Shown: positions 17,251 to 54,334 of the stretch, piece by piece
How the letters are laid out: every line of letters begins with the position of its first letter
Numbering within the stretch: the first letter of the stretch is position 1
Source: Candidatus Levybacteria bacterium RIFCSPHIGHO2_01_FULL_41_15
Lineage (GTDB): Bacteria > Patescibacteriota > Microgenomatia > Levybacterales > UBA12049
Reading direction: 5' to 3'
DNA length: 64,000 nt
NCBI GenBank assembly: GCA_001782165.1
Contig: MFNV01000009.1
Location: forward strand, 122,283 to 186,282
Notes under the pieces: model-generated
What the model saw: only the letters and a program-made list of their open reading frames with translations
What the model was told of the DNA's origin: nothing
Database searches by the model: none
Position numbers and translations under genes: made by a program

Positions 17251-18180
17251 TTATTTTATAAAGTCTGGAATGCGTAAAATGTTAAATCCGATTACTTGAA
17301 GAATCACAAAGGAGAATATTATAAAAACAAGCCCTATTATCGCGGCAATTAGCTGATCCCGCGCTGCCTCCAAAGCTTCAGGTTTGCCCCGCGCTGCTAT
17401 AAGCTGATATCCCGAATAGATTATGAGAAGAAGTGCCAGTCCTCCTGAAAGAGAAAGAATAATACCAAAGATTGATTTTATAAGACCCGATGGATCTGTG
17501 CCAATATCTATTCCAAGGCCGGTTGTTACAGAAGTGCAGATTTTTATTTGTTTTTCATCTGTGGTTAAATTCCCTTCTTTATCAAATCCCTTGGAACAGG
17601 GTGGAGGAGGGGGGCTGGGATCAGGTTCTTCGGGTTTTGGCTTATCTGACTGAGGAGAGCAAATTGTATCATATTTCTCAATTTCCAACGTCCATGTCTG
17701 CAGAATTGTTTTTTTAAACTTATCCTTATCAAGGTTGGCTACTAACCCGCATGAATAAACCTTACACTCAGAATTAGCTGGATCGCAGAGTTGGGAATAA
17801 AGACATCTGTCATTATCAGTTAAACCAGAATCATCTCCGCATTTGCCATCAGAAGATATAGGAGGAAGACATCTATACACTCCGTCATTTTCCCTGCAGT
17901 TAAATTCCTGACATCCTGCATCTGTGCAGGGCTGGGTTGACAGGCAAAACGGCGAATTTTCATCGTTGCATTCTATAGGGGAGTTATAAGGATTCGTTTG
18001 GGGGGCAGGGCCTCCGCCTGTATCTCCTGTCTCTACTGCCAAAGAGGGCGGGGGTTTGAAAATTAAAATAAGGAGAATTATTACAACAACTCTTAGAATT
18101 TGTCCCACAATTTTATAGTAGACAAGTTGAGAATACTTTGCAAGAGCCGTCAAGCTATGCTTGGAATTTTCAATTTTCAA
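17251..18180 (-). CDS. Cys-rich ectodomain fused to C-terminal VirB2/TrbC-like pilin domain
   Basis: 309 aa. An N-terminal TM anchor is followed by a ~170-aa domain with ~22 Cys and a PPPPP linker. The C-terminal 70 aa are a pilin core (IIYSGYQLIAARGKPEALEAARDQLIAAIIGL). The start is a TTG embedded in a 7-nt x4 tandem repeat, so the 5' boundary is uncertain. Confidence 0.55.
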   Translation of the reverse strand: MKIENSKHSLTALAKYSQLVYYKIVGQILRVVVIILLILIFKPPPSLAVETGDTGGGPAPQTNPYNSPIECNDENSPFCLSTQPCTDAGCQEFNCRENDGVYRCLPPISSDGKCGDDSGLTDNDRCLYSQLCDPANSECKVYSCGLVANLDKDKFKKTILQTWTLEIEKYDTICSPQSDKPKPEEPDPSPPPPPCSKGFDKEGNLTTDEKQIKICTSVTTGLGIDIGTDPSGLIKSIFGIILSLSGGLALLLIIYSGYQLIAARGKPEALEAARDQLIAAIIGLVFIIFSFVILQVIGFNILRIPDFIK

Positions 18181-18266
18181 TTTTCAATTTTCAATGAATT
18201 TTTAATGTTTCAAGCTTTAAATTTTAAAAACTTAGATTTGATTTCAAATTTCAAATTTAAAATTAT

Positions 18267-19619
18267 TTATGGTGTAAATTTTATTCCTCTTCCCTTAATT
18301 GTTTGCAAGTGAGATGGATTATTGGGGTCGTCTTCTATTTTTTTTCGAAGGCGAAAGATTAGCTGATCCAGAGCTTGATCGGTTACTCCTTCTGTTGATT
18401 TTGAATTTTTCCACACGGCGTTTATTACTTCCTCCCTTTCTACAATTTTATCTTTATTCTCAATCAGGAACTTAAGGAGCTTAAATTCGGAAGAGGTCAG
18501 AATATCAGAAAGGATACTATCTCCCTTTTTTATCTCGTTGGTGATAGGGTCAAACGAAATGACTTGATTACCCAATTGTTCGATTACCGTGATGAATTTT
18601 TCAAAAAGGGGAATTGAGATTTTACTGTTTTCTATTAATCCAACGTTTTGTAAATAGCCACTAGAAATTAGTTGGTTAGCAATTAGTGATTTCTGTTCGG
18701 AAGGTGTTAAGGAATACAAAATCTCATAAAGAGAACCTCTTATCGTTTTTTGCTCAAGCAAAAAACTCTGTAACCCTATTCTGGTTGCTAGTTGCCAATT
18801 GCTAGTCGCTAATCTTGTCTCAAGACAAAGCCTTGTTAATTTTCCGTGGCCTGCGGTTAGTGAAATTATTTTGTTAGTTAGTTTTTCGTTTATTCTTTTA
18901 CCGCTTACTTTTTCAAGGTATGAGATTCGGAAATCAAGACCGGGCTTGTCAAATAGCGGTAAATAAACGATGTTTCCTGCCAAAAATTCATAAAAATCCG
19001 AGAAAAGCATTGGTTCTATCAAATCCTCAAGGGGTCTATTAAGAGAAAAAACAACAGAGAATCTGTATTTTGCCCTGTTTCTCAAGATTCTAAGATTGGC
19101 AAAAAATTCAGATGAGAGCATTGGTACATATTCTTCAAATCTGTCAAACAGAAAGACTACTGTAAGTTCTTTCTCAATACAAAGGTAATCAATTGCTTTT
19201 TTAAGGCCCCCAAACAAAACCATCTCGTCATTGGTCAGAAGCGATTCTTTGAAAATCTTATCCATGGTTTCATGTTCCTGCATTTTTCTTTCTCTTAATG
19301 AATCAACAAGTGAAAGGAAGATGAATTTTGTTGCCTCAAATAAGGGCTTTTTTCTAATCTCCGAAAAATTTAAGAGGACAAAATGAAACCATTTCTGGTC
19401 TTCTCCTAAATGTTTTAACCGGACAGTGCGGTTATAAGATAAAAGACCCAAAAGATTTGATCTTCCAACCCCGGGAAGACCAATAAGCTGAGCCGATTTT
19501 CCTTCCTTTGCAAACCTTAAGATTTTTTCTATTTCATCAAATCTTGAATTTTCAGGGTATAATGATTCGAAATGAGCCAGTTCACTACCATCGACCATTG
19601 ATGATTTATTATTTACCAT
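18267..19619 (-). CDS. putative transcriptional regulator: N-terminal P-loop NTPase-like (STAND/AAA-like) + C-terminal OmpR/PhoB-type winged helix
   Basis: 450 aa. A degenerate Walker A (LIGLPGVGRSNLLGLL) and hhhhD (VVFLFDRFEE) sit at the N-terminus. The C-terminal ~95 aa (SSEFKLLKFLIENKDKIVEREEVINAVWKN...ALDQLIFRLRKKIEDDP...LQTIKGRGIKF) is a clear trans_reg_C wHTH. Confidence 0.55.
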   Translation of the reverse strand: MVNNKSSMVDGSELAHFESLYPENSRFDEIEKILRFAKEGKSAQLIGLPGVGRSNLLGLLSYNRTVRLKHLGEDQKWFHFVLLNFSEIRKKPLFEATKFIFLSLVDSLRERKMQEHETMDKIFKESLLTNDEMVLFGGLKKAIDYLCIEKELTVVFLFDRFEEYVPMLSSEFFANLRILRNRAKYRFSVVFSLNRPLEDLIEPMLFSDFYEFLAGNIVYLPLFDKPGLDFRISYLEKVSGKRINEKLTNKIISLTAGHGKLTRLCLETRLATSNWQLATRIGLQSFLLEQKTIRGSLYEILYSLTPSEQKSLIANQLISSGYLQNVGLIENSKISIPLFEKFITVIEQLGNQVISFDPITNEIKKGDSILSDILTSSEFKLLKFLIENKDKIVEREEVINAVWKNSKSTEGVTDQALDQLIFRLRKKIEDDPNNPSHLQTIKGRGIKFTP

Positions 19620-19694
19620 GTTTGTTAAATTACAAATTCAAAATTACAAATAACAAATAATTGCAAAGTTATAAATACAAAATTCAAAACAACT

Positions 19695-20057
19695 TTATCT
19701 ACTTTTTTCTAAGATTGCAGCAAAAATTTTAACAAGCTCGGTAGTTTCTTGCAATAGTGGAGTAATCTTATTCTTGAGTTCCGGGTTTGCCTCTTCGATC
19801 AATTGTAACCAGTAAATTGTTTCTTTTCCTTCTTTTCTGCAGATTCTAATTCTAAATGAGAAATCTTTCTTTGTTTCTGTTTCATTTGCTTCTCGATAGT
19901 TAGCACCCATAGAAGTTCCGGAACGAATAACTTGATCGCACAAATTAAAGTTAATTGTGTTTTTCGGCAAGTCTTTAGCTAAGTGAATAATTTTTTTTCC
20001 AAATTCAAGCGTTCTATCTTCTAAATCGTACTTTTTATTATTTTGGTTATTTGACAT
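19695..20057 (-). CDS. four-helix-bundle protein (23S rRNA intervening-sequence protein family)
   Basis: 120 aa; the motif ...QVIRSGTSMGANYREANETETKKDFSFRIRICRKEGKETIYWLQL... is typical of the PF05635/TIGR02436 family. Confidence 0.6.
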   Translation of the reverse strand: MSNNQNNKKYDLEDRTLEFGKKIIHLAKDLPKNTINFNLCDQVIRSGTSMGANYREANETETKKDFSFRIRICRKEGKETIYWLQLIEEANPELKNKITPLLQETTELVKIFAAILEKSR

Positions 20058-20180
20058 TTTAATTTATTTGGAACTTGTAATTTTGTACTTGTAATTTTCC
20101 TTACTACGTAAGGATATTGTAATCTTCTTGAAAGCTAATTATCAAGCGCTTCGGCTTCGCTAAGTGTAAACTTCCCTCGT

Positions 20181-22961
20181 ATGAAAGAGTTTGATTTGAC
20201 AGGCAGAGCTAATCGCCCTACACTTGAAGTGAAGGGAGATATTTTTATGTCAGAACCCGGACAAAGAGAACAGCCGCCAAAACAGCTCGAACCTGCCTCT
20301 GGAGCTGGTGGAGGATCTCCGCCAGAAAAACCACCAATCACTACATCCGGAGAAGCAAATGGCAATGGGGAAGATTCTGGTGAACAGGCGCCAAATATAA
20401 AGACCGGCCCTGCGAAATGGAAAAACAAAGATAATGATCAGCCTATTGTTGTTACAGAGTATGCAGGTAAAGGTCCAGACGGTAAAGATTATGTCAATAT
20501 TGAAGGAAGCGAAACCAGTGTTCCTCTTGATGAAATAGAATATCCACAAGAAGAAATTCCAGCTGCAGGCGCAGGCGGAGGAGAGCCTCCCGAAGAACCC
20601 CCAGAGGTAGTAACTGCAGAAGAACCTGGGGAGAGTGACGGTGGTGAGGATCGTGGGGAAATTAAAGAATATATAAAGGCATTAAATAAGTTATTGTCAG
20701 ATGAAGAAGTAAGAAGGGTATTGATTTCGGATAACCCAGACTTTGATCAGCTCCCTCAGCTAGAAGAATTTATAAGAAAGTACATGAGTCCTGCAGACAG
20801 GAGCGGAAAGATAGGCCATTTTGCTAGATTTGTTACCGGAAAAGATAATGATTTTTCTTCTACATCAAAGAAGCTTATATTCGAGCGTTTACTTGAAAAA
20901 ATTATAGGCATGACAGATAAAACTCCCGATAGGCCATATCATGCTGATTCGGGCAATATATATGTTTCATCCAACTTACAAGAGCTACTTGAAGTAGCAA
21001 GGGCAAATTTGGCTGAAGATTTTCCATATTTCGGAAACCTTGCTTATGTAAGAGAAGTTGCTCATGAATTGAATAGAAATCTTAAATACGGGGAGCAATA
21101 CAAAAAATATGTAACAGAAAGTTTGCGTACCGGGGGACTTAATTTTATGCATAATAGAATTGCAGGTGTAAGTGCAGTTATAAGAGAGTATGAAAGAATA
21201 AGTTCATACAGAATAAGACAAGTAAAAACCTGGTTTTCAGAAAAGGATATAAGGGCAATAGACAGTGAGGTAGAAGAGATGATAAAAGATCATTCGAGAG
21301 AAGAAATGAAGATAGGTAATAGGAAATTATCAGATTGGGAGATTGAAAGGGCTTTAAAAATAGGTAAAATTCTCTTTGCAGGAAGCCAAAGACTGGCCGC
21401 GTATGCTGCTGCAGGGGATCTTCCTCACGACGCGTTGCTTACTGGACGATTTGGATCTGTTCCCTATGAATATATAGCAAGATCTTTATTTCCATTCAAA
21501 ATGACTTCCCCAAGGTTTTTTGCTGGAGCAGGAGGTTCAAGAAGATACATGGAGAGAATATTTGAAGAACAAAAGAAAGATAGCCCGTGGTTTGATGAGA
21601 AAGAAAAAAAATCAAAGCTTTATTCTCTCTTTGGACTTGATGAAAGAACCATCCTTATGGATAGTTGCGGAGCTATGGATTCTCAGACTCAGGCATGGAG
21701 AGCGGAAATGATGTTTTTGGGAGCCATTACGATGAACATAGACGGAGAACACGTTAACTTACTGGATTACTTGAATGAGTTTGCTGTTCTACACGGTGGA
21801 AAATCAGGAGATCCTAAGGATCAGATTCTGGGTGGAAGGGGCGTTGATGAGAAGGAAAGACCAAATTTTTCAAAAGACGTTAGAAATGTAGTAATGGGTC
21901 AAAGATTATATTTATCTAATCTTGCTCGATACGGAAATTTTGATGACGTCCTAAAAGCGGATATCTGGCAAAAAATTAGTCTTCTTACTCCATCAACAAT
22001 AGCATCTGTGGTTCCCAGAGCCATCGGCAAAGAAGATGAGAAAATATGGGAGCAGATGCGATATAAACTATATGCCGCTGAGAATAAAAGAATAAACAAT
22101 GATTCAGTAAGGTACAGGAAAGGGTTAACAAATGATGATTTAAAGGGCGAAAATGAAAAATTCAGTAAGGTTTTAGAAACTGTAAAAAAAGATGTTTGGA
22201 CAGAAGGAGATTTTGATACAATTTTGGAATATATGGGGATGGGAGAGCTGAAGCTAGAGATAGATGAGAAGAAATTACTGAAAAAAATAATAACAGCTGG
22301 TATAGAAGAGTCAGAGAAGCTTGGTAGGGCAAAACTTCCCTTTGCGTTTGCGATTGTCGATGCGCCTGAAGTAGCATGGTCTAAAACAGAGGATGGGACT
22401 GGAGGACTTGAGGATGAAGATTTGCTAAGGATACTTTTAAGTGATCAGGAATCATTTTCCAAGGCATGGACAGAAATGAACGGTCTAATAGAAAACCCAA
22501 CCGCAGGTTTACGAGAACATACAGCAAAAGCAGTTGAAGGAATAGGAATGGTAATAGGCAGAAAAAGCGCACAGGAAATAATTCGCCCATTTATAATAGC
22601 TTATATTAAGATGGCATCTACTACGCCTTCTTCAGAATGGATAGGCGATTTTCAAAAACTTCTTAGGCAAGCTACGTCAGAAATGGAAAGGTATTATAGA
22701 AATTCCCACATATCGTGGGATGCTAAAGAGAGAGAAATAACTCTTGAAGGAATGTCTCAAGATGGCTCAATCTCTGATGATATTTCTGAAGGAAATATAT
22801 CTGATCTAGATAAAGTTAAGAAGAAAACAAAATCGACCAGAAGAGCAACTTTTCTTAGAATGGCAAGATTAATAATTATGTTACTAGGTCCGGAGGCAGG
22901 TATATCATTTCTTAAACTTTTTGTGCCACAAGATTTACTAAACTCTTTACAAAAAAAATAA
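20181..22961 (+). CDS. large cytoplasmic protein of unknown function with disordered repeat-containing N-terminus
   Basis: 926 aa with no TM and no recognisable catalytic motif. The N-terminal 170 aa are acidic/Pro-Gly rich with a duplicated AGAGGG(S/E)PPE(K/E)PP unit. The start is possibly the downstream Met (MSEPGQ). Confidence 0.45.
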   Translation: MKEFDLTGRANRPTLEVKGDIFMSEPGQREQPPKQLEPASGAGGGSPPEKPPITTSGEANGNGEDSGEQAPNIKTGPAKWKNKDNDQPIVVTEYAGKGPDGKDYVNIEGSETSVPLDEIEYPQEEIPAAGAGGGEPPEEPPEVVTAEEPGESDGGEDRGEIKEYIKALNKLLSDEEVRRVLISDNPDFDQLPQLEEFIRKYMSPADRSGKIGHFARFVTGKDNDFSSTSKKLIFERLLEKIIGMTDKTPDRPYHADSGNIYVSSNLQELLEVARANLAEDFPYFGNLAYVREVAHELNRNLKYGEQYKKYVTESLRTGGLNFMHNRIAGVSAVIREYERISSYRIRQVKTWFSEKDIRAIDSEVEEMIKDHSREEMKIGNRKLSDWEIERALKIGKILFAGSQRLAAYAAAGDLPHDALLTGRFGSVPYEYIARSLFPFKMTSPRFFAGAGGSRRYMERIFEEQKKDSPWFDEKEKKSKLYSLFGLDERTILMDSCGAMDSQTQAWRAEMMFLGAITMNIDGEHVNLLDYLNEFAVLHGGKSGDPKDQILGGRGVDEKERPNFSKDVRNVVMGQRLYLSNLARYGNFDDVLKADIWQKISLLTPSTIASVVPRAIGKEDEKIWEQMRYKLYAAENKRINNDSVRYRKGLTNDDLKGENEKFSKVLETVKKDVWTEGDFDTILEYMGMGELKLEIDEKKLLKKIITAGIEESEKLGRAKLPFAFAIVDAPEVAWSKTEDGTGGLEDEDLLRILLSDQESFSKAWTEMNGLIENPTAGLREHTAKAVEGIGMVIGRKSAQEIIRPFIIAYIKMASTTPSSEWIGDFQKLLRQATSEMERYYRNSHISWDAKEREITLEGMSQDGSISDDISEGNISDLDKVKKKTKSTRRATFLRMARLIIMLLGPEAGISFLKLFVPQDLLNSLQKK

Positions 22962-22963
22962 AA

Positions 22964-24694
22964 TTATCCTACGCCGAATCTTCGACCGAATGCTCGTAGT
23001 TTTCCGACTTTGCCGTAACTTACCCTTCCTGTTGCTTGATCATAACCTGCCAATCTATATTCCTCAGAACCGGCTATAGTTTGACCTACACCCTTAGCTA
23101 CAGAAATTGGGTAACCTGCTCCCGCTCCAACTGCGGCACCGATTGAGGAGAGGTCGATTTTGGGTGCCTTGAGAGCTTCTCTTAATGTTGTTACAATTCT
23201 TGGCGCAGTCAATATGATTCCAAGGGCAATTATTGCGCCGAAACGCTCTCCATTGGGGTTTCCTATAAAAGGCGGCACGAACATGTCTCCCCCTCCTGCA
23301 TCAAAAAGATGCATAAAAGTCTCTCCCAGAAGGAAAAGAACAAGAGTTGCCGGGAAAGCCGCAAGGTTTGAAATAAGACTTCTGAGCCAGGAGGTAAAGC
23401 TGATTGTACTTCCCGGGAAAAGTCCTGCGACAATCCAGAAAGGCGCAAATACTATGTCTATGAGAATCATTATATAGGCCTGAAGAAGGATAAACCAGAG
23501 TCTAAACAGCGCCCAGAGAATTGCAATAAGAATCACCAGAAATGCAATTATACCGGCCAACCCTCCGATTACGATCTTCCCAGCATAGTTTGTAAGGTCG
23601 CACGCTCCTCCTCCAAATAACCCAAAACCAGAAGTTATAAAATTGAGGGCTCCGCTTAAAAAACCTCCCACAACAGGAAGACTTTCAAAAATCGCACAAG
23701 TACTCCCCGCAACCGCACCAATAGGCCCGGCAAGTATGAAACCAAGTACTGCGGTTATAATACTGCCTAAATAAGTAGTAAAAAGACCTGGGGTGAGACT
23801 GGCTATTATATTACCCACACTATAAGAAGCATTAAACGCAACTGTAAAAATATTAAATGTATCATGCGCAACACTAAAAGGAGAAGTATATAGCCGCGGA
23901 ACATCGTGTTCAAAGATATTTAGGATCAAATATAGGGCGACATACATAAGGTCAATAAGAAAAGCTGCAATTGCAAGAGAGAATGTCACAAGAAGTATCC
24001 CTATAATTAATTTGGGTATTTGGTTCTGCAAAGTCATGACAGTTCGCGGATCTATTTTTACCCTAAGCATTATTGCAACTCCTATAATCACAAAGACAAG
24101 GACAAACAGAAGATATACAATGTCTCTGAATTTACTCCAAAGAGGAATAAGAGGAGAGACTCTGGAGACGCCAAGTCCTGTATTCTGGGCATAAGTACTT
24201 TTTGCTATCCCAAAATTTTGAGCAAGATCTTTCATATAGTCTGCCGCGTGAACAGGAGCCGTATAGAGCATACCGATCATGCCTCCCATAAAACCCACTG
24301 CTCCTCCACCGCCTTCAACAAAGCCGATACTTCCGGTCTTAGGATCAACACCGAGGCATTTTTGTGAGACATTTGTCGGATCAATTCCCGAAAGCTGGCA
24401 GACAAGAGCGGACATTACTTCTATCATCACACTTTGGGTATAAGTATGAAGGTTTTTTGGGACATCAGGATTTGTGTTGGGGGCAGCGTAGGGATTGGTT
24501 TGGTTATTTTGGTAATTGGGTAGATTGGAGTTCGGAATGCTTACTGTCTGAGCAAAAGTTGGGGATTTAAAAATTAAGAATGAAAAAATAAAAAATAAAA
24601 AAACCAAAATAAGATACGGGCCCCACTTCGTTAAAACTTCCACCGTCGCTAAGGCTTTGGCGGACAAGTCGCGGGGCAAGGCAGGAAGTCTCAT
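22964..24694 (-). CDS. polytopic membrane protein, VirB6/TrbL-like candidate
   Basis: 576 aa with a signal/TM start and then ~8-10 TM helices with Gly-rich loops. Its size and topology fit the VirB6/PrgH-class channel subunits usually encoded with VirB4 systems. Confidence 0.4.
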   Translation of the reverse strand: MRLPALPRDLSAKALATVEVLTKWGPYLILVFLFFIFSFLIFKSPTFAQTVSIPNSNLPNYQNNQTNPYAAPNTNPDVPKNLHTYTQSVMIEVMSALVCQLSGIDPTNVSQKCLGVDPKTGSIGFVEGGGGAVGFMGGMIGMLYTAPVHAADYMKDLAQNFGIAKSTYAQNTGLGVSRVSPLIPLWSKFRDIVYLLFVLVFVIIGVAIMLRVKIDPRTVMTLQNQIPKLIIGILLVTFSLAIAAFLIDLMYVALYLILNIFEHDVPRLYTSPFSVAHDTFNIFTVAFNASYSVGNIIASLTPGLFTTYLGSIITAVLGFILAGPIGAVAGSTCAIFESLPVVGGFLSGALNFITSGFGLFGGGACDLTNYAGKIVIGGLAGIIAFLVILIAILWALFRLWFILLQAYIMILIDIVFAPFWIVAGLFPGSTISFTSWLRSLISNLAAFPATLVLFLLGETFMHLFDAGGGDMFVPPFIGNPNGERFGAIIALGIILTAPRIVTTLREALKAPKIDLSSIGAAVGAGAGYPISVAKGVGQTIAGSEEYRLAGYDQATGRVSYGKVGKLRAFGRRFGVG

Positions 24695-24773
24695 CTTATT
24701 TGAGTTTGATATATTAATTAAGAATTGTCAAGAAAGGGAAGCAAATTGCTGGATTGTTAGATTGTTGGAGAAG

Positions 24774-24861
24774 TGCGGAGGAGAGGAGATTCGAACTCCT
24801 GATACGGTTGCCCGTAAACCTGCTCTCCAAGCAAGCGCCATAGGCCACTAGGCGACTCCTC
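24774..24861 (-). tRNA. tRNA-Ser (anticodon GGA)
   Basis: Manual fold: acceptor GGAGGAG/CTCCTCC, anticodon loop TTGGAGA, long variable arm, T-loop TTCGAAT. CCA is not encoded. Confidence 0.8.
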
Positions 24862-24965
24862 CAAAATTAAATTCCAAAATTCGAAATCTTGAATCCTAAA
24901 TAAATCCTAAACCCAAAATTACAAATTTCAAACGATTGGACAATTTAGCAGTCCTTATTATATCA

Positions 24966-25382: not shown

Positions 25383-25496
25383 TTCTTACCCCTCTGTTAA
25401 TATTGGTTTAGTCCACGCTTGTCTTCGCTGACGCTTCGCAAGCGAGCTCCGTCGCTTCGCCCCGTACCAGTCTGGTACAGGGCTTCGCTCGTCCGC

Positions 25497-25522: not shown

Positions 25523-25529
25523 TGATACA

Positions 25530-33356: not shown

Positions 33357-33408
33357 GATAATAAATTAAAAATTAAAAGTGAAAATTTAAAAATTTACGA
33401 AACTTAGA

Positions 33409-43433: not shown

Positions 43434-43481
43434 AGCCTATATGATACCATTTAAAATAATACCAATACAATTGTTCTCTGT

Positions 43482-44516: not shown

Positions 44517-44596
44517 AGAAGTTAGTTCGAAGTTTGGTTATTGGTTATTCGTAAAAAAACGAAGAGCGAACTAGCAAACTAACTAATAACTGTCAA

Positions 44597-46248: not shown

Positions 46249-46293
46249 AATCCGAGTATTATAGGATAAAAAAAAGAGGAAATCAAGATATGA

Positions 46294-47979
46294 TTACCAG
46301 CTTGTCCTAAGGTGGTTCATGGCGTAGTTTAGGTCGCCGGAGACTTTTTTGCGGGGGTTGAAGATATTTTGGGGGTCGAAGATTTTTTTTGTTTCCTCAA
46401 AAAGCTTTACAATTTCTTCTCCATACATTTGCTTAAGATACGGAGTTCGTATCAATCCATCATTGTGCTCTCCGGTTGTTGACCCCTTATACTTTGCGAC
46501 AATTTTATAAACCTGGTTTGAAATCTGGGGAATTGCTTCTCGGACATTTGGATTATTAATATCAACCAGAGGAATGATATGAAAGTTTCCATCTCCCACA
46601 TGCCCTGCGACAGTGAAGATGAATTCCGGATGTTTTTTCAGGATATCAGTCACTTGGGGTACTACTTCTGTAATATATTCAGGTTTAATAACAAAGTCAT
46701 CTATAAAAGGTGCTGTGTGTTTATCTCGAATTTTCTTGCGAAGCAGATTGAAACTCTCGCGCCGGACAAGCCAATATCTTTTCTCCTGTCCTTCCAAAGC
46801 TGTCTGGGTTGTGGGATGAAGCGGTTTGAGTTTTTCCCGAAGTGTCGCCACTTTTCCCTTAACCTCCGAAAGATCGTCGCTTGTAAAATCAACTTGAAGA
46901 ACCAGTTTGGGAAGACTTCTTCCGGTAAACAAATCAAAAAAAGCTGGCAAAAATGCAATGCCTGCTTCAATTGATCCTAGAAAACCTAATTGTTTTGTAA
47001 ATTCCGGAAAATATTTAAGCGCGAGTTTTAATGTATTGTCATCATACGATTCAAAACTTTCCGGCTCAAGATCAAGAACCTCTTTTATAATCTGTCCAAG
47101 GGCAGACATGTCATGAAGAAAAATTATTAACATATCACGATGCTTATGAATGGGTACAAGTCCCAAGTCTCCTTCTAAAAACATTCCCAGAGTTCCTTGC
47201 GCTCCGACAAAAAGTCTAGTAAGATCAAATATTTTTTTGTCTTTGTCCCATACATTCCAAAGATAGTAGCCTGCGGAGTTTTTTGAAACCTGTGGCTTTG
47301 CTTTCAATAACAGTTCGTAGTTATTAGTTATTAGTTCATAGATTTTTTTATAGATTTCTCCTTCGTAATCTTTTTGTTTTAATTTTTGCTCGAGTTCCTT
47401 TTCATTTAGCGGCCTAAACTCGTATTCGTTTCCATCAGATAGAACAACTTTTAATCTTCTTACATAATTTTCGGTCTTTCCATACTTAAGGGATTTTTCT
47501 CCTCCCGCATTGTTGTTGAAGATTCCTCCCATTGCGCATAATTCCCTAGATGCAGGATATGAGGGGAAAATTAGATTATATTTAAGAGTCTCCTTTTCAA
47601 AATCCCTGTAAAAAACTCCCGGTTGAGTTGTCGCTATATTTCCGTTTACGGCCGGGGTTTTATTAAAGTATTTGCCAAAAGCAACGATAATAGATTCATT
47701 AATTGATCCGCCTCCCATGTCTGTCCCTGCGGCGCGTGCGGTAAGGGAAAGAGTGGGATTATTTTTTTTATTATCATTAACAAACTTAACCAGAGCTTTC
47801 ACATCTTCGTCATCTTTTGGGAAAACTACAGCTTGAGGCTTTACTTCAAAAAGCGAAGCATCGTGGGAGTAGTCGGAGAGGGTTTGATTATCGGTTATAA
47901 CGTCACCTTTAATCAATGTCTTAAGTTTATCGAGTAATTCTTGATCCATAAATTCCAAATCCAAAATCTCAAATAACAA
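46294..47979 (-). CDS. FAD-linked oxidase (GlcD / D-lactate dehydrogenase-like)
   Basis: 561 aa with FAD_binding_4 (ARAAGTDMGGGS) and a C-terminal HVGDGNFHI block. Confidence 0.75.
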   Translation of the reverse strand: MLFEILDLEFMDQELLDKLKTLIKGDVITDNQTLSDYSHDASLFEVKPQAVVFPKDDEDVKALVKFVNDNKKNNPTLSLTARAAGTDMGGGSINESIIVAFGKYFNKTPAVNGNIATTQPGVFYRDFEKETLKYNLIFPSYPASRELCAMGGIFNNNAGGEKSLKYGKTENYVRRLKVVLSDGNEYEFRPLNEKELEQKLKQKDYEGEIYKKIYELITNNYELLLKAKPQVSKNSAGYYLWNVWDKDKKIFDLTRLFVGAQGTLGMFLEGDLGLVPIHKHRDMLIIFLHDMSALGQIIKEVLDLEPESFESYDDNTLKLALKYFPEFTKQLGFLGSIEAGIAFLPAFFDLFTGRSLPKLVLQVDFTSDDLSEVKGKVATLREKLKPLHPTTQTALEGQEKRYWLVRRESFNLLRKKIRDKHTAPFIDDFVIKPEYITEVVPQVTDILKKHPEFIFTVAGHVGDGNFHIIPLVDINNPNVREAIPQISNQVYKIVAKYKGSTTGEHNDGLIRTPYLKQMYGEEIVKLFEETKKIFDPQNIFNPRKKVSGDLNYAMNHLRTSW

Positions 47980-48078
47980 ATAAATTCAAAGCTACAATTT
48001 CCAAAATCGAAAACGATCTTGAATTTTGAGATTAGAATTTAGATATTATTTAGGATTTGGTGCTTTGAATTTGTAATT

Positions 48079-49068
48079 TTATTTCCTTGCTATCACTTTT
48101 TTCACAGCCTCAATTATTGAGGGTGCGTCCATTTTGTATTTTGCCATGAGTTCTTTTGGAGTTCCGGATTCTGCAAAAGTATCCTGAAGGCCGACAAATT
48201 CCATAGGAGTAGGATTATTTTTTGCCAGAACTTCTGCGATTGCACCTCCCAAGCCTCCCATAACTTGATGATCTTCAACTGTTACGATAGTTCCGGTTTT
48301 TTTTGAAAGCTCAATAATCGATTTTTCATCGATTGGTTTAACTGTTGAAACATTTGCGACTAGAACATGGACATTTTCTTTTTCGAGTTCTTTTGCCGCC
48401 AAGAGAGCATTATAAAGAATATGCCCTGTTGCAAAAATAACTGTTTGAGGATTCTCAGAGTCCCAAAATGTTTGGATTTTTCCTACTTCAAAATGAGTTT
48501 CGTCGGTGGTAATTACAGGTGTCTTATCTCTCGTAAATCTCAAATAAACAGGACCTTCAATTTCGGCAGATTTAATTGTTGCTTTTTTTGCCTCAATTGC
48601 ATCACAGGGAACAAAAATTGTAAGACCCGGCCAGGCGCGAGTTATTGCAATATCCTCTGTTGCCTGATGAGTTGCTCCGTCAGGACCAGTCACGACTCCG
48701 GAGTGATGTCCTGCGATTTTTACATTAGACTGGTTATATATAATAGTAGTGCGAATCGTTTCCCAGTTTTTGCCGGGAGAAAAAGTTGCGTAAGAAGATA
48801 TGAAAGGAATTTTGCCGCTTATTCCAAGCCCTGCTGCAATAGCCGCCATGTTTTGCTCGGCGACTCCACATTCAAAAAATCTATCAGGAAATTTTTTCTC
48901 AAATTTTTCTGTCTGTGTTGATTCTGACAAGTCTGCTGTTAAAACCACAACATTTGGATTTTTTTCTCCAAGTTCAACCAAACCCTCCCCATAACCTGTC
49001 CTTGTTGCCTTCTGCTCTACATTTTCATCAAATATTTTTGGGCTTAGCTTAAGGTATAGATTTAACAT
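48079..49068 (-). CDS. transketolase, C-terminal subunit (pyrimidine-binding + C-terminal domain)
   Basis: 329 aa, split-transketolase architecture. Confidence 0.85.
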   Translation of the reverse strand: MLNLYLKLSPKIFDENVEQKATRTGYGEGLVELGEKNPNVVVLTADLSESTQTEKFEKKFPDRFFECGVAEQNMAAIAAGLGISGKIPFISSYATFSPGKNWETIRTTIIYNQSNVKIAGHHSGVVTGPDGATHQATEDIAITRAWPGLTIFVPCDAIEAKKATIKSAEIEGPVYLRFTRDKTPVITTDETHFEVGKIQTFWDSENPQTVIFATGHILYNALLAAKELEKENVHVLVANVSTVKPIDEKSIIELSKKTGTIVTVEDHQVMGGLGGAIAEVLAKNNPTPMEFVGLQDTFAESGTPKELMAKYKMDAPSIIEAVKKVIARK

Positions 49069-49160
49069 AACAATTCAAAATTCATAATTTAGAGTTCAGA
49101 ATTTAAATTTAAAGTTTAGGATTCTCTTAATTCTTAATTCTGCATTCTAGATTCTAAATT

Positions 49161-50024
49161 CTATTGGTGTTCGCTTCTTATTTTTCCCTGTAAAGTCCTA
49201 AGTTCGTCGAGGGCTTTTTTTGCCTCCTCTTTGTTCGGCGGTTTTCCGTGCCAGTGAAAGTCTTTTTCCATAAAATCAACACCTTTTCCCGGAATTGTGT
49301 GGGCAATAATAACTGTTGGTTTTTCAAAGACAGCCCGAGCTTCTTTTACGGAATCTATAAAAGCTCTGATATTATTTCCATCAACTTCTAGGACTTTCCA
49401 ATTAAATGTTTCATACTTTTGCCTTAAAGGTTCAAGAGGCATTACATCTTCTGTGAAGCCATCGATCTGGATGTTATTTCTGTCTATTACAACTGTTAAA
49501 TTATTTAACCTATGTTTTCCTGCAAACATTGCCGCCTCCCAAGCGTTTCCTTCCTGATGTTCGCCGTCTGATGTTATGCAATAAATATGATACTTTTTAT
49601 TATCAAGACTTGCGGCAAGTGCCATACCGATTGACTGAGAAATACCTTCTCCCAAAGGACCTGATGTCGTCTCGACTCCGGGAAGTGAGGTTCTATGAGG
49701 ATGTCCCTGAAGACGGGAATTTATTTTTCTTAAGGTTTTTAATTCCTCCAATGGAAAATAACCAGCAAGTGCCATGGTGACATAGCGAACCGGACAAATA
49801 TGTCCGTTTGAGAGAATTAGTCTGTCACGATCTTCCCAGTCGGGATTTTTCGGATCGTGATTTAGAATATGAAAATAAAAGGCTGTGAAGATATCCGCCA
49901 TTCCTAAAGGGCCTGCAGAATGTCCGGAGCCTGCTTCCAAGAGAGTTTCTATTATAAGCTCCCGGGTCCGGACTGCTTTTAATTCAAGTTCTTTAAGTTT
50001 TTTTTCGTGAAGTTCGGGAATCAT
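49161..50024 (-). CDS. transketolase, N-terminal subunit (TPP-binding)
   Basis: 287 aa; GHSAGPLGMADI... and GDGE..EG motifs. Confidence 0.85.
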   Translation of the reverse strand: MIPELHEKKLKELELKAVRTRELIIETLLEAGSGHSAGPLGMADIFTAFYFHILNHDPKNPDWEDRDRLILSNGHICPVRYVTMALAGYFPLEELKTLRKINSRLQGHPHRTSLPGVETTSGPLGEGISQSIGMALAASLDNKKYHIYCITSDGEHQEGNAWEAAMFAGKHRLNNLTVVIDRNNIQIDGFTEDVMPLEPLRQKYETFNWKVLEVDGNNIRAFIDSVKEARAVFEKPTVIIAHTIPGKGVDFMEKDFHWHGKPPNKEEAKKALDELRTLQGKIRSEHQ

Positions 50025-50281
50025 CCTAATTCTATATTACAGTTTATTTATTAGGCTTTGCAAACAGTTTCATCTTCTTTTCTGCCGAGAAAGCCTATTC
50101 TGTACTTTTGTACCGGCAAAAGTACCAAAAACTCTCGACAAGCCTCCTCTCGTGCTTTCAGATTAAAACTCACTTAACGTGGGAACCCTCCCGTTAGGGA
50201 ATCCCACAGTTGCGCTCATTTAATCCTTCATGCACTCGACGCCAGATTGTCAATTAATAACTGTGGAATGGCAAAATAAAA

Positions 50282-51556
50282 CTAGTCTTTTAAAACAATC
50301 ATGAGGTCCGAGACGTTTGAGGGAAGGCGGCCGGTTTCAATTCCGTCTCCTGTTTTTTGGAAAAATTCTAAACTATTGTTATTGTCCAAAAATTCTTGCG
50401 GATTTAAGTTTAATTTTTTTGCTTTTTCTAAGGTCTCAATGTCTCCGATAGCTCCGGCAAAAGGAGAGTTATCCCAACCATCTGAGTCAAAAGAGCAAAT
50501 TACAGTTTTGTCATCTATATTTGAAAGTGCGCCGAGAACTACTTCCTGATTTCTACCGCCTTTTCCAGAACCTGTTACCTTTACAGTTGTCTCGCCCCCA
50601 ATAAGAAGAATAGAGCTTGGAGTAGTTTTACTTACAAGGTCCGACCCTGTATTTCTTGCTTCACCCTGGAATTTATCGCTTAGAATTTCTGCTTTAAAAC
50701 CTAGCTCTTCCGCTTTTTTCTTCATTGCCTCAAGAGCTGTTAAATTGCTTAAAATTAAAATATTTGAAATTTTTTCAAAATATTTATCCTCCTTAGGAGT
50801 TTCTGTTAAATAGTCCTTGGTAACAAGGTCCGACCTTGTTAAGCTTGTTGAGATTGAAAGAGCGTCATCAATAGTTGTCGGGTCTTTAACAGTTGGTCCT
50901 GAAGATATGACAGAAAGATCATTGCCGGGGACATCAGATGCGATTATACTTACAATGGTTGCGGGGTAAAGATGCTTAGCAAGTCCTCCTCCTTTTACAC
51001 TTGATAAATGTTTTCTTACTGTATTCATTTCTTTGATATTTGCACCTGATTTAAGAAGGGCATCATTAATTTGTATTAGTTTTTCAAGATCAACACGGTA
51101 TGGTTTTTCAAATAGGGCAGAACCTCCTCCTGTTATTACTACTATTACCAAGTCTTTTCTTGTAGGATTAATTTCAGTAAATCTCTTTATCAAACTGTCG
51201 GTAAAATCAACATTAGTTTGTGAGGGGAGGGGATGGGTGCCTTGGGTAAATTTTATTTTTTTAAAATCTTCAGAGTTTGTGTCTATAACATAACTCTCAA
51301 CCAGTCTGTTCCCTAACTTTTCCTTAATTAGTCTTGAGTTTTTCGCCGACCCTTTCCCAAAACCTATTAAAAATATTCTCTCAAAGCCTCCTAAGTCAAA
51401 TGACTTATCACTAATTCCTAAAATATTGTTTTCTAATTTAATACTATTATTAATAACATTTTCCGGCTGAATTGATGAAAGAGCAGTTTCTACAAGCTCC
51501 AAGACAATCTTCCTCTGTGGTCTTGTCGCAATCTTCTCAAAATTCCTAATAAACAT
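50282..51556 (-). CDS. glycerate kinase (MOFRL family)
   Basis: 424 aa with MOFRL family domain architecture (DUF4147-like N, MOFRL C). Confidence 0.65.
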   Translation of the reverse strand: MFIRNFEKIATRPQRKIVLELVETALSSIQPENVINNSIKLENNILGISDKSFDLGGFERIFLIGFGKGSAKNSRLIKEKLGNRLVESYVIDTNSEDFKKIKFTQGTHPLPSQTNVDFTDSLIKRFTEINPTRKDLVIVVITGGGSALFEKPYRVDLEKLIQINDALLKSGANIKEMNTVRKHLSSVKGGGLAKHLYPATIVSIIASDVPGNDLSVISSGPTVKDPTTIDDALSISTSLTRSDLVTKDYLTETPKEDKYFEKISNILILSNLTALEAMKKKAEELGFKAEILSDKFQGEARNTGSDLVSKTTPSSILLIGGETTVKVTGSGKGGRNQEVVLGALSNIDDKTVICSFDSDGWDNSPFAGAIGDIETLEKAKKLNLNPQEFLDNNNSLEFFQKTGDGIETGRLPSNVSDLMIVLKD

Positions 51557-51728
51557 TTGATTTTAGTTTATATTTATCCCAAGCTATTGACAACAGCTTA
51601 TAGTTATGAAAATTCTTGTCATTATACCAATGTTATAACGTTGTTATAACATAATATTCTTGACAGGAATTTATAATGGGCATACTATATTTATATAATA
51701 GTTTTTATATAGTCTTGGCAGACATCCT

Positions 51729-52436
51729 ATGAGCGTTGAAGGCGCCCGGGTTCTTCATTTCTTTGATAGATACAGGAGGTTTAGCCCCCAAGTCCCCCCT
51801 CCCGCAAAAGCAGAAATAGTTTCCATCTCTGATATAAGAATCAAAAGAGAGGAAAGAGTTTTAAAAGAACAGATAGCAAGATTTGTAGAGGAGTTTGGCT
51901 TTCATAGAGAGTTGGATATGTCAGAGGAGGATTACTGCGCCTCTTTCCCAAAACCAGCCCAAAAGCCAGAGGAATATAGTGCTAGATTTGATATTACTCT
52001 TCCTATTGACCCTAGAATTCCGCTACAAACCTTGCATAGACTTGCGGGAATTTATGACTATTATTTTGAAGCACTAAATGTTGTAGACCTAAAACACCCT
52101 CCTACTAGAAAACCTTATATTATTTATCTTAGAAGCGAGACTCATGCCCTCAATTCAATAGAAGAGGGAATGGCAAGTCTTAAAGAAGATGAGGGAGATC
52201 CCACGTGGCGTGAAGTTGTCCTTTTCTATCTATTGCATTATAGAGAGCATCCTGAACCTCATTCTATTGTCCGATCGTTTAGGGCAGCAAGTTCGCGTCT
52301 TATAATTGAGGACGGAGAATTAGTACCCGTTCTTGAAATGTACCACGATAAGCCAATAGCCCGAGGCAGGACTATTGATTCTTTCTATCCACATAGGGCT
52401 TTAATTCGTGGAAATATAATAAATGTTGCTGCTTAA
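51729..52436 (+). CDS. hypothetical protein
   Basis: 235 aa with no recognised motif. Its GC content appears higher than surrounding genes. Confidence 0.35.
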   Translation: MSVEGARVLHFFDRYRRFSPQVPPPAKAEIVSISDIRIKREERVLKEQIARFVEEFGFHRELDMSEEDYCASFPKPAQKPEEYSARFDITLPIDPRIPLQTLHRLAGIYDYYFEALNVVDLKHPPTRKPYIIYLRSETHALNSIEEGMASLKEDEGDPTWREVVLFYLLHYREHPEPHSIVRSFRAASSRLIIEDGELVPVLEMYHDKPIARGRTIDSFYPHRALIRGNIINVAA

Positions 52437-52489
52437 GTTTCTTCTTTCTGCCTCTTGATGTAATTTTTCCTGTCTCCTATACTAATTGT

Positions 52490-53569
52490 ATGATTCGCGT
52501 TGCTATAAATGGATATGGAAGAATAGGGAGAGTAGCTCATAGAGTAATTCTTGAGAAATATCTTTCGGAGATCGATGTTGTTGCGATAAATGCAGGCTCT
52601 TCAACTGATATAAAAGGGTGGATGTACCTGCTAAAGTACGATTCTTCATATGGACCATTAAGTTCAGAGTTCAGAGTTCAGAGTTCAGAGTTGAATGATT
52701 CAGAAAAAACAGGAATACTAAAAGATTGCATCGGTTATTTAATTATTAATGATAAAGAAATTCCGGTTTTTTCCCAGAAGGATCCAAGTCTTTTGCCATG
52801 GAAAGACTTAAATGTTGATGTAGTTATTGAATCAACAGGAGCTTTTACAAAAGAGGAAAAACTTAAGCATCATCTTGATGCAGGTGCAAAATCAGTAGTT
52901 TTATCAGCTCCTGCCAAAGATGGTGACGTTCCCACATATGTAATTTCAGTAAATTCCAAAGATTACAAAGGCGAAAAACTTATAAATAACGCTTCTTGCA
53001 CAACTAATTGCATAACACCGGTTGCAAAAGTAATTGTTGATAATTTTGGCGTCGAGAAGGCTATGATGACGACAATCCACGGATATACATCTGATCAGAG
53101 ACTTCAGGATGGCGGACATAAAGATTATAGACGCGCCCGAGCGGCAGCAGAAAATATAGTGCCAACATCAACCGGTGCCACAATTGCCGCTTCGCAAGCT
53201 CTGCCAGAACTTCAAGGATTATTCAGCGGACTTGCAATAAGAGTTCCTGTTGCGGTTGGGTCTTTATCGGATTTCACTTTTCTTTTAAAAAGGGAGACTT
53301 CAAAAGAAGAAGTAAATGAGATTTTTAGAAAGGCATCAACGGATCCCATATATAAAGGTATACTAGAGGTGACAGAAGATCCTATTGTATCATCTGATAT
53401 TATTGGGAATCCCCATTCCGCAATTGTAGATTTATCTCTGACGCAGGTAGTAGGAGGAAACATGCTTAAGGTAATTGCCTGGTACGACAATGAATACGGA
53501 TATTGCAATCGACTCGTTGAAGAAGTACTACTCGTTGGAAAATCACAAATACAAAGCACCAAATCCTAA
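52490..53569 (+). CDS. gap: glyceraldehyde-3-phosphate dehydrogenase, type I
   Basis: 359 aa with NGYGRIGR and ASCTTNC active site. A 7-nt (agttcag) x4 tandem repeat at 52661-52688 encodes the atypical insert SEFRVQSSEL. Confidence 0.9.
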   Translation: MIRVAINGYGRIGRVAHRVILEKYLSEIDVVAINAGSSTDIKGWMYLLKYDSSYGPLSSEFRVQSSELNDSEKTGILKDCIGYLIINDKEIPVFSQKDPSLLPWKDLNVDVVIESTGAFTKEEKLKHHLDAGAKSVVLSAPAKDGDVPTYVISVNSKDYKGEKLINNASCTTNCITPVAKVIVDNFGVEKAMMTTIHGYTSDQRLQDGGHKDYRRARAAAENIVPTSTGATIAASQALPELQGLFSGLAIRVPVAVGSLSDFTFLLKRETSKEEVNEIFRKASTDPIYKGILEVTEDPIVSSDIIGNPHSAIVDLSLTQVVGGNMLKVIAWYDNEYGYCNRLVEEVLLVGKSQIQSTKS

Positions 53570-53655
53570 ATAATAATTTAATTAAGTCCAAATGTCCAAA
53601 ATCCAAAACAGTTTTGGTATTAGAATTTTTTATTTTGTATTTATTTGTGATTTGT

Positions 53656-53703
53656 CCCGCTGGTAGTTTCCAGCCGGGATCCCGCAATTGCGGTGAGAAT
53701 TTT
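53656..53703 (+). repeat. 48-nt double-hairpin element, copy B
   Basis: gtcccgctggtagtttccagccgggatcccgcaattgcggtgag. Same two stem-loops as copy A with compensatory substitutions (ctga/tcag to ctgg/ccag; ccgcc/ggcgg to ccgca/tgcgg). It lies 87 nt after the gap stop; copy A lies 83 nt after the comF stop. Confidence 0.5.
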
Positions 53704-53758
53704 AGATTTAGAATTTGATTAAATTAATTAGTTTAATTAGAATAATTAGAAATTCACA

Positions 53759-54334
53759 ATGGTTGGTCTGCTAAATATTAAAAATATCACAATCTCGGGG
53801 AGAATTGGGTCTGGTGCAACAACTCTTGCTAAAAAACTTTCAAAAATTCTGGGTTGGGAGATGATTGAGGGAGGAGCGATAATGAGACGTACTCAACAGG
53901 AAGTAGGAGCCAGCATAATTGAGACAGACAAAAGACCGGATCATTTCGACCTTGAATACGAGGAAATGGTAAGGAAAATTTTAAAAGAAGAAGAGCACCG
54001 GATTGTCCAAAGCCATCTTGCAGGATTTGATGCAAAGAGGATAGATGGAGTTTTTAAAATCCTTCTTGTTTGTGATGATGAAAAAGGGCGTGATAAAAAA
54101 GAAATCCGTGTAGATAGACTCGTAAATAGAGATGGTATATCAGTTAAGAATGCAAAATTTGAAATTAACGAGCGGGAAAAAAGAAATTTGGATAAATGGA
54201 GAAGACTTTATGCGCAGGGCGATGAGGCTTGGGTTTACTGGGACAAAAAATACTATGATTTAGTCATTAACACATATTCTCACAATAAGGACGAAACACT
54301 AAGGATCGCATTAGATGCTATCGGATACAGATAA
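53759..54334 (+). CDS. cytidylate kinase-like family P-loop NMP kinase
   Basis: 191 aa with P-loop ISGRIGSGATTLAKKL, resembling the CMP-kinase-like family PF13189. Confidence 0.55.
   Translation: MVGLLNIKNITISGRIGSGATTLAKKLSKILGWEMIEGGAIMRRTQQEVGASIIETDKRPDHFDLEYEEMVRKILKEEEHRIVQSHLAGFDAKRIDGVFKILLVCDDEKGRDKKEIRVDRLVNRDGISVKNAKFEINEREKRNLDKWRRLYAQGDEAWVYWDKKYYDLVINTYSHNKDETLRIALDAIGYR

Follow-up and report, generated by a model that had tools for sequence, protein, structure and literature searches.

The 64,000-nt stretch of a Candidatus Levybacteria genome analyzed here (the window; Candidate Phyla Radiation (CPR)/Patescibacteria, G+C ~0.38) carries short AT-rich tandem arrays whose unifying feature is a 7-nt period and not a set of common k-mers. 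The gap protein it encodes has 100% identity to one that NCBI attributes to a Candidatus Levybacteria bacterium of the RIFCSP series. Arranged head to tail and specific in both period and lineage, the arrays represent, at the level of a lineage, one more instance of the heptanucleotide simple-sequence repeats known from prokaryotes. The feature is real and statistically strong; an earlier reading of the same DNA (the original prediction) missed the period and mis-described the arrays as k-mer families. The window contains eight exact period-7 runs of 2.4 copies or more, against 0.03 expected in dinucleotide-preserving shuffles, and exact runs at the other periods are either at shuffle level (2 and 3) or absent (4–6 and 8–15). 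A mismatch-tolerant detector, set at a threshold of at least 16 of 21 lag-7 matches, recovers 16 period-7 regions against 0.1 expected; tolerant regions at non-multiple periods number 0–4 each against ~0.2 expected, the sole further strong signal being the period-14 harmonic. Autocorrelation of intergenic DNA accordingly has maxima at lags 7, 14, and 21; in coding DNA the usual period 3 is seen. Tandem Repeats Finder (TRF) reports 17 rows of period 7, including two arrays of 4.4 and 4.6 copies that match at 100%, and the copy number per array is typically 2.5–5.5 by TRF and exact runs. The unit repertoire is varied, comprising AATTTTC, ATTTCAA, AAATTCA, AAAGTCA, AAAATTG, AGTTCAG, TCTAAAT, AAATTAA, and TTTATTT. 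Array G+C is 0.08–0.23, except for 0.40 in the gap array, and no window array contains GGG, CCC, or any other run of G or C. About half of the detected regions lie in frame within genes.

The k-mer framing was abandoned for periodicity because none of the motifs proposed earlier (the ttcaaaat, attttca, and agttcag families) is enriched: relative to the dinucleotide shuffle, the window holds 19 versus 16.6 copies of TTCAAAAT, 43 versus 39.9 of ATTTTCA, and 9 versus 7.9 of AGTTCAG. The claim that nearly every intergenic gap carries such repeats is likewise overstated, since lag-7 z reaches at least 2.5 in 9 of the 35 gaps of at least 45 nt, all of them between co-directional genes and none divergent. 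Regarding individual positions, tandem arrays are present at six of the places where the original prediction had put them (15780–15960, 18166–18260, 19620–19690, 24860–24950, 47950–48080, and 49070–49160), and the array proposed at 53570–53760 is borne out in part. The remaining site, 20058–20100, is a 12-nt duplication with no heptamer array (lag-7 z = 0.6).

The evolutionary behavior of the arrays is recorded in gap, where a perfect in-frame (AGTTCAG)x4.6 array (52660–52694, + strand, with the repeat copies themselves at 52661–52692; TRF 100%) encodes SSEFRVQSSEL. At the orthologous codons the window and the related locus L173 carry perfect (AGTTCAG)x4 and L004 carries perfect (AATTCAA)x4; L178/L179 have (AATTCAG)x3 plus one AGTTCAG, L180 has (GAAATCC)x4, L176 has mixed units, and L084 and L088 have 14-nt alternations. 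The metagenome scan for gap yielded few close relatives, and orthologous nucleotide sequences were obtained through exact-protein look-ups. The unit thus differs between species, within each species the coding arrays stay perfectly periodic, and the gap loop is identical in length in the five closest species. Third-codon positions flanking the array are only 48–50% identical between species, and independent drift would therefore have destroyed the periodicity. For example, the window and L004 arrays show nine differences, all of which fall at two unit positions in every copy (chance ~7e-7). Moreover, unit type is discordant with the gene tree in that L173 shares the unit of the window, and the identity of L173 gap outside the loop is 92.9% to L005, 91.0% to L004, and 88.1% to the window. 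An alignment of 120 homologous gap proteins also contains every grade of intermediate, including SKFKIQNSKL, SKFRIQNSEL, SEFRIQSSEL, and SEFRVQSSEL. Together, these comparisons show DNA-level homogenization (concerted evolution) of the gap array without change of length; such well-documented concerted evolution within core enzymes is what sets the Levybacteria arrays apart.

The gap array is predicted to code a structured, exposed segment and not only a floppy loop, because FRVQSSE, the stretch coded by the array, is matched to the KVEYTE strand of 1hdg when gap is compared with GAPDH structures that have been solved (a 14-residue insertion follows) and residues 63–67 form a β-strand in the AlphaFold model, with a predicted local distance difference test score (pLDDT) of 74–91. 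The model is moderate overall (pLDDT 66) and was used solely for the N-terminal domain. The same loop accommodates a different kind of sequence in L005 (3649–4716), where the place of the array is taken by a palindromic insert, GC-richer and in frame (GTCATCCTGA...TCAGAATGAC), coding peptides such as PSTVILNAREGSGDSSASPQNDN; this insert is also found in P0017, P0026, P0030, P0057, P0063, P0077, P0107, and L086. Since L173 carries an array and L005, otherwise its closest relative, the palindromic insert, the gap loop is a hotspot for two unrelated kinds of repeat DNA.

Stop-free arrays in frame occur, besides gap, in pgk (two sites) and in the gene of the PduO-type adenosyltransferase. The pgk product is assigned to the PGK Pfam family. 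At pgk site 1, an in-frame (AAATTCA / AAAGTCA)x4.7 array (44798–44830, +; TRF) encodes HKFKSQKSKFKIE and forms an insertion of ~11 aa relative to L004, L007, and L008, which are array-free there; L178 has an array at this site. The array adjoins native KFSL codons, which suggests an origin in situ. At pgk site 2, an in-frame (AAAATTG / AGAATTT)x5.6 array (44880–44919, +; TRF) encodes EFKIENLKLKIENF, and the orthologous position holds (AGAATTC)n in L004 and (ATAATTC)-type units in L178, with no length change relative to array-free L008. A pure (AAAATTG)n array would give TGA in one phase, and both units standing in that phase end in T and not G, a substitution that is consistent with purging of stops, though the numbers are small. 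The adenosyltransferase gene carries an in-frame (AAATTCA / AAATCAC / AAATTAC)x4.3 array (62286–62320, +; TRF) encoding SQIQNSKSQITNE, and the same place in L004 reads SQIRNPKSEIRKE, derived from (GAAATCC)n. Across the coding arrays, the sense strand is A-rich in 16 of 19. In 14 of the 19, no frame of the consensus unit contains a stop when read on the sense strand, and the same holds for the antisense strand in only 3 of 19, a bias to be anticipated if arrays form in either orientation and are retained only where they can be read through. The repeats that the original prediction had placed within gap, pgk, and the adenosyltransferase gene are exact, and its view that arrays in coding sequence are constrained is supported by this stop-free orientation bias, by the equal length of the gap array in five species, and by TGA avoidance at pgk site 2.

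Stability within the population was assessed in assemblies, namely 12 same-population contigs (L001–L003 and L164–L172) from independent JGI, ENA, and Logan samples, which span window positions 15267–22619, 41597–48739, and 49529–59961. The contigs are 99.86–100% identical to the window with zero gaps, and among them no unit-number polymorphism is present at the pilin, pgk, or gap arrays. Homogenization between species implies unit turnover; the population contigs lack unit-number variants. The two outcomes that the original prediction had itself named as speaking against it, k-mers without enrichment and arrays without length polymorphism, were both obtained, the latter at the level of assemblies, and by this standard of its own its interpretation fails. 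Four Logan contigs carrying the Trans_reg_C gene (L166–L169) end inside the flanking heptamer arrays, at window positions 18173/18243 and 19654–19661; the arrays, through their repeated k-mers, therefore fragment k-mer-based assemblies. In practical terms, they interrupt short-read assembly, may lead to wrong start-codon calls, and make protein length seem more variable than it is within CPR gene families.

The position of the arrays relative to genes follows a rule. On a crude gene map based on open reading frames (ORFs), covering the window and seven Levybacteria loci (170 kb), 36 arrays comprise 20 in coding sequence and 15 in co-directional gaps (1.6 per kb), with none in 2.8 kb of divergent gaps and none in 1.6 kb of convergent gaps. 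Seven array-rich loci of other Patescibacteria contribute 16 coding, 13 co-directional, no divergent, and one convergent array. Pooled, the gaps hold 28 arrays in 19.5 kb of co-directional, none in 7.2 kb of divergent, and one in 3.8 kb of convergent DNA. At the co-directional density ~10 arrays would be expected in divergent gaps, and none is seen (Poisson P ~3e-5). Relative to the flanking genes, the intergenic arrays show no orientation bias (7:9).

Period-7 regions are unevenly distributed among lineages. The window has 2.5 per 10 kb, Levybacteria whose gap is at least 78% identical have 1.9, and more distant Levybacteria-like loci have 0.55, compared with 0.07 in Saccharibacteria (34 loci, 561 kb) and 0.16 in non-CPR bacteria (37 loci, 570 kb). 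Array-rich metagenome loci also occur at 45–57% gap identity (L097 with nine arrays, L100 with seven, L108 and L157 with four each). By exact-protein look-ups their gap proteins are named Curtissbacteria, Parcubacteria/Patescibacteria, and Yanofskybacteria, and their arrays likewise extend into pgk and other genes. A cyanobacterial origin of these loci, considered because the units resemble the short tandemly repeated repetitive (STRR) sequences of cyanobacteria, was rejected: the cyanobacterial octamer HIP1 (highly iterated palindrome 1) is present in 0–1 copies in the related loci tested, and the gap proteins carry the names Curtissbacteria, Yanofskybacteria, and Patescibacteria. A search with a synthetic (KFKIQNS)6 peptide returned only short spurious ORFs over long (AAATTCA)n arrays, mostly from metagenomes and otherwise from Nostoc, Moorena, Okeania, Microcoleus, Bdellovibrio, and Prevotella; the unit therefore exists outside CPR, and the search is no CPR-specific census.

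The explanation favored here, with a probability of roughly 60%, is that the heptanucleotide repeats of Levybacteria are made by short-range template misalignment, filtered by selection, and for the most part tolerated as by-products. Replication or repair in these lineages would be prone to misalignment by one 7-nt register, through slippage or out-of-register copying. Arrays would be seeded where a proto-repeat already exists, for example in a K-F-K motif encoded as AAA-TTC-AAA, and misalignment would then spread unit variants along the array as concerted evolution. Within genes, an array would pass selection only if its orientation gave no stop, its length kept the frame, and the protein segment tolerated it; from divergent promoter gaps, selection would purge arrays. 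No dedicated function would be needed; the arrays would add or rewrite short peptides of the KFKIQNS or EFRVQSS type, would supply spacer DNA, and would not act as fast on/off switches. Because a one-copy change is impossible in an essential gene, homogenization at constant length would need either conversion out of register or steps of ±3 units. As non-triplet units homogenized without frameshift, the arrays in gap and pgk are a natural experiment on slippage versus out-of-register conversion.

Several points weigh against this explanation. No misalignment event is directly seen and no assembly contains a unit-number variant, so that the process must be slow relative to ~0.1% divergence or the variants must have been lost in consensus assembly. 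Simple ±1-unit slippage does not predict homogenization at constant length, and the ±3-unit or out-of-register step is an assumption. The absence of arrays from divergent gaps and their near-absence from convergent gaps could equally mean a function in transcribed intercistronic spacers. In addition, three near-identical ~115-nt copies imply dispersal beyond slippage alone, and the mechanism leaves the preference for period 7 unaccounted for. A broader version of the misalignment idea, possible but doubtful, holds that several Patescibacteria lineages (Levybacteria, Curtissbacteria, Yanofskybacteria, and others, not Saccharibacteria) share a distinctive length-preserving copying process in the 7-nt register, active in replication or repair, that writes arrays and keeps homogenizing them, structured segments of essential enzymes included. 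If true, DNA repeat dynamics and not protein selection would set some of the amino-acid sequence encoded by gap, pgk, and other core genes; if tied to a specific configuration of polymerase, primase, or repair genes, it would explain the bacterial preference for 7 nt, which was noted long ago.

The intergenic arrays occupy spacers of several kinds. A degenerate heptamer array lies between two genes for type IV secretion system (T4SS) pilins (17219–17247; period-7 region, gap lag-7 z = 4.1), and an (ATTTCAA)x3.4 array (18241–18264; TRF 94% matches, z = 4.5) shares its spacer with the array at 18164–18196. Upstream of the Trans_reg_C gene (18267–19619, − strand), a degenerate AAATTAC / AAATTCA / AAATAAC array occupies the entire spacer (19627–19689; TRF and period-7 region, z = 3.2). 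A degenerate xCAAAAT-type array (24860–24935; z = 3.7) adjoins tRNA-Ser(GGA) (24775–24862), and an (AAATTAA)x4.7 array (33357–33395; TRF, z = 2.9) fills a 52-nt co-directional spacer. Between the genes for the transketolase halves, (AATTCAA)n is followed by inverted (TCTAAAT / AATTCTT)n (49072–49163; TRF, z = 6.5), an arrangement with a homologous counterpart in L005 (655–770). AT-rich arrays of 7/9-nt units (TTTAGAA, ATTAGATTA) lie at 53696–53750 (TRF), directly upstream of the gene at 53759–54334, and a promoter scan finds a promoter-like TTGATT-17-TAGAAT within them. An Rfam scan of the window returned only tRNAs, transfer-messenger RNA (tmRNA), and the adenosylcobalamin (AdoCbl)-II riboswitch, with no match at arrays.

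Among the alternatives, the most serious rival, if an improbable one, is that intergenic arrays act as cis-elements of polycistronic or closely packed transcription units, with the coding arrays as a by-product. Candidate roles are AU-rich platforms for a protein that binds single-stranded nucleic acid, such as S1, Csp, or a CsrA-like protein (as proposed for TAACTGA), UP-element or promoter material, and hairpin terminators or stabilizers. A regulatory role stays a serious rival because of the strict co-directional context, 28 arrays against none in divergent gaps where ~10 are expected, and an equal context bias is described for the mostly transcribed heptamers of Xanthomonas and Nostoc (PMC4692102). 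Orthologous spacers also retain an array though its unit changes, even as the high diversity of units within the genome and across those same spacers argues against sequence-specific recognition, as does the lack of orientation bias toward the flanking genes (7:9). Folding potential divides the spacers. Those in which an array precedes its own inverted complement form long hairpins rich in AU, and four fold better than shuffles: 47945–48085 (z = −5.3; −35.6 kcal/mol, a long imperfect hairpin), 53570–53715 (z = −3.2), 49060–49170 (z = −2.6), and 15785–15930 (z = −2.4). Some spacers made up purely of direct arrays lack such potential, with z near 0, at 18175–18270 (0.05), 19615–19700 (0.64), and 33350–33412. 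A conserved structured RNA was considered for the dispersed ~115-nt element described below and rejected, as the consensus fold of five copies reaches −1.1 kcal/mol with 0 compensatory pairs, a lack of covariation that tells against a cis-acting role. Some arrays supply −35/−10-like hexamers at 17-nt spacing, and the rarity of Shine-Dalgarno-like motifs (10 of 63 genes) means that AU-rich leaders could matter. However, promoter-like sites exceed the shuffle only modestly in two regions (39 versus 26.6, sd 4.6, and 39 versus 31.5, sd 4.8) and are scattered across coding and spacer DNA without clustering at arrays, and terminator-like sites around arrays do not rise above shuffle expectation in either scanned region.

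Less probable still, the longer degenerate arrays would be copies of a palindromic element of ~115 nt that inserts after stop codons in the manner of a miniature inverted-repeat transposable element (MITE) or a repetitive extragenic palindrome (REP), the period 7 of spacers being largely inherited from it. The element consists of degenerate heptamers, an xCAAAAT-type arm followed by its inverted complement, and its three copies in 64 kb show 77–82% identity over 62–117 nt in self-BLAST and an exact 24-mer in common. These copies lie at 15791–15905 (+), between a T4SS-pilin gene and a PrgI-like gene (nhmmer E = 4e-24; gap lag-7 z = 4.9; 79–82% self-BLAST identity to the others); at 47967–48081 (−), in the spacer after the gene for the transketolase C-half (E = 3.6e-28; z = 4.7); and at 53536–53659 (+), starting in the last gap codons (KSQIQSTKS*; E = 6.8e-30). 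Each copy starts within or just past the final codons of a gene and has hairpin potential, and the other, GC-richer palindromic insert in the gap loop of L005 and homologs shows that small elements colonize these genomes. The element would nevertheless account for only 3–5 of ~18 arrays, as the perfect short arrays, like every coding array, are built from other units and lack flanks in common. Similarity among low-complexity arrays is partly expected from composition; no terminal repeats or target-site duplications were identified, no examination having been aimed at target-site duplications; and the matches outside the window are only positional orthologs after gap, in L176 (nhmmer E = 3.7e-17) and L173 (1.8e-10).

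The proposal that the arrays are intrinsically curved DNA or spacers bound by nucleoid proteins fits their AT-richness (G+C 0.08–0.23), which nucleoid proteins often favor, and is very unlikely, since A-tracts at 7-bp spacing are out of register with the 10.5-bp helical repeat and should not sum to a bend: by DNA geometry each phase turns successive tracts by ~240 degrees, so that bends would cancel every 21 bp, and the arrays are moreover short (20–45 bp) and also located inside genes.

The perfect (AATTTTC)x4.4 array at 18164–18196 (exact run 18165–18195; TRF 100% matches) overlaps the TTG that opens the longest ORF of a T4SS-pilin gene (17251–18180, −; 309 aa, Pfam T4SS_pilin), as the original prediction had observed, and the public gene call starts at the same TTG. 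Where the pilin begins is uncertain, with an in-frame GTG 24 codons downstream, ahead of the hydrophobic segment. Contingency loci such as Haemophilus hmw1A likewise combine a surface-structure gene with a tandem repeat of non-triplet units within or beside it; 7-bp repeats are reported to drive hmw1A phase variation and TTTTGAT heptads to tune the ctx promoter. The corresponding reading of the Levybacteria arrays as contingency loci, in which gain or loss of a 7-nt unit toggles the T4SS pilin and other genes, is the least credible of all despite the position of the perfect array at the annotated start of a surface pilin gene, because that start is uncertain, the array (18165–18195) is identical in six independent JGI, ENA, and Logan contigs, no indel occurs in any of the 12 population contigs, and arrays of the same kind stand in the housekeeping genes gap and pgk, where switching would be deleterious. 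The slippage switch suggested earlier at the pilin gene is consequently unsupported, the unit number being equal throughout the contig assemblies.

Two further arrays lie within genes elsewhere in the window: (AAAAATA)n at 24567–24611 (−; period-7 region, TRF), near the 5′ end of the ORF at 22964–24694 (−), and an in-frame degenerate array at 47308–47346 (−; TAGTTAT on the + strand; TRF, period-7 region). The latter is located within a gene for a flavin adenine dinucleotide (FAD)-linked oxidase (46294–47979, −; Pfam FAD_binding_4 and FAD-oxidase_C). In the population contig L170 (4698–6353, equivalent to window 46294–47949; ERZ4903072), gene calling splits this oxidase into two ORFs, of 119 aa and 407 aa. 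Since the split call comes with three substitutions relative to the window and no indel, one of the two variants may be a pseudogene. Upstream of the adenosyltransferase gene, a (TTTATTT)x5 array (62105–62141, +; TRF) sits between the AdoCbl-II riboswitch (55.5 bits, 61961–62041), which directly precedes the gene, and the ATG at 62148. The Pfam Cob_adeno_trans match covers 62148–62681 and the domain starts at that ATG; the long ORF running from GTG 61989 through the riboswitch is probably spurious.

The surrounding region contains a T4SS-like cluster with a TraG/VirB4-type ATPase, a PrgI-like gene, and three T4SS_pilin genes, together with a tRNA cluster, tmRNA, NrdR, and ribonucleotide reductase, and a glycolysis/pentose-phosphate neighborhood composed of pgk, a split transketolase, glycerate kinase, and gap. 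Just upstream of the gene for the transketolase N-half lies a GC-richer non-coding element of ~230 nt (50040–50275, −) that folds well, at −68.9 kcal/mol (z = −3.2); Rfam returns nothing for it at E <= 1. Its homolog in the syntenic L004 (5975–6170) occupies another spacer, between the transketolase-half genes, and the element is a candidate structured leader, non-coding RNA, or small mobile element. Adjoining the TraG/VirB4-like ATPase, a 602-aa ORF with no Pfam match (9944–11752, −) lies in a segment of G+C ~0.50, compared with 0.38 for the window, and this segment may be foreign DNA. The cumulative GC skew reaches its minimum at ~20 kb, at the divergent gap 20058–20180, where the main gene orientation flips; because the two coincide, this point may be a replication origin or a strand-switch point. 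A permissive Shine-Dalgarno-like 4-mer precedes only 10 of the 63 window ORFs, and −10-like TANNNT hexamers are concentrated 0–11 nt upstream of starts (for example, TATACT before gap). This rarity, together with hexamers that hug the starts, suggests that many transcripts are leaderless or have very short leaders.

The occurrence of heptanucleotide repeats in a small number of bacterial lineages has been a curiosity without explanation since 1990. Literature searches found no description of heptamer or simple-sequence repeats in CPR/Patescibacteria, and CPR thereby provides an independent, AT-rich lineage of very small genomes in which to consider them. According to Mrazek 2007, as cited in PMC4679880 and PMC4692102, heptanucleotides are the commonest class of long simple-sequence repeats (5–11-nt units) in most surveyed genomes, and the DNA segment held by the polymerase has been proposed as the reason for 7. 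As in that survey, tandem 7-nt units of Levybacteria are over-represented relative to other lengths and are lineage-specific, with slippage as the proposed origin. The cited repeats are mostly intergenic, as are many Levybacteria arrays, but about half of the Levybacteria regions are in frame in genes; moreover, the survey predates CPR genomes, and Levybacteria differ in having many coexisting AT-rich units in short arrays.

Closer likenesses exist to individual repeat families. The TAACTGA arrays of Beggiatoaceae, cyanobacteria, and Bacteroidetes have 2–6 copies, and stop codons set their orientation inside ORFs (MacGregor 2015, PMC4679880). Both these and the Levybacteria arrays are heptamers of low copy number that occur in intergenic DNA near start codons and occasionally as translated 7-aa repeats, with stop content dictating orientation in ORFs. 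TAACTGA, however, is a single dominant unit just upstream of starts, and its ORF copies lie at the termini of mostly hypothetical proteins, whereas Levybacteria units are diverse, keep no fixed distance to starts, and have copies inside conserved enzymes. The window holds nine single occurrences of TAACTGA and 0 tandem dimers. The cyanobacterial STRR units of Calothrix and other Nostocales are CCCCAGT, TTGGTCA, and CAACAGT, none of which forms a tandem dimer in the window. STRR arrays resemble the present ones as heptamer tandem arrays scattered through the intergenic DNA of one lineage, and differ in phylum and units, in their greater length, and in the dominance of few unit types.

The strongest parallel in context is found with the G-rich heptamers GGGAATC of Xanthomonas and GGGGA(T/C)T of Nostoc PCC 7120 (Rehm et al. 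2015, PMC4692102), a study that also lists three heptanucleotides in Calothrix PCC 7601. These heptamers occupy the gaps of aligned ORFs, avoid coding regions and the gaps of divergent ORFs, favor four units, sometimes form inverted pairs, and recur at the same intergenic sites in relatives with sequence variation, most of them being transcribed (PMC4692102). Levybacteria arrays likewise stand between aligned ORFs, are depleted at divergent ORFs, contain about four units, include some inverted pairs, and occupy orthologous intergenic sites with changed sequence. Unlike those heptamers, Levybacteria units have no runs of G or C and thus lack the G-tracts that characterize quadruplex repeats, so that the quadruplex argument is inapplicable in CPR and the four-unit preference in Levybacteria is not explicable by quadruplex formation. 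The recurrence of the context rules and of the preference for about four units in CPR without quadruplexes points to a common mechanistic cause.

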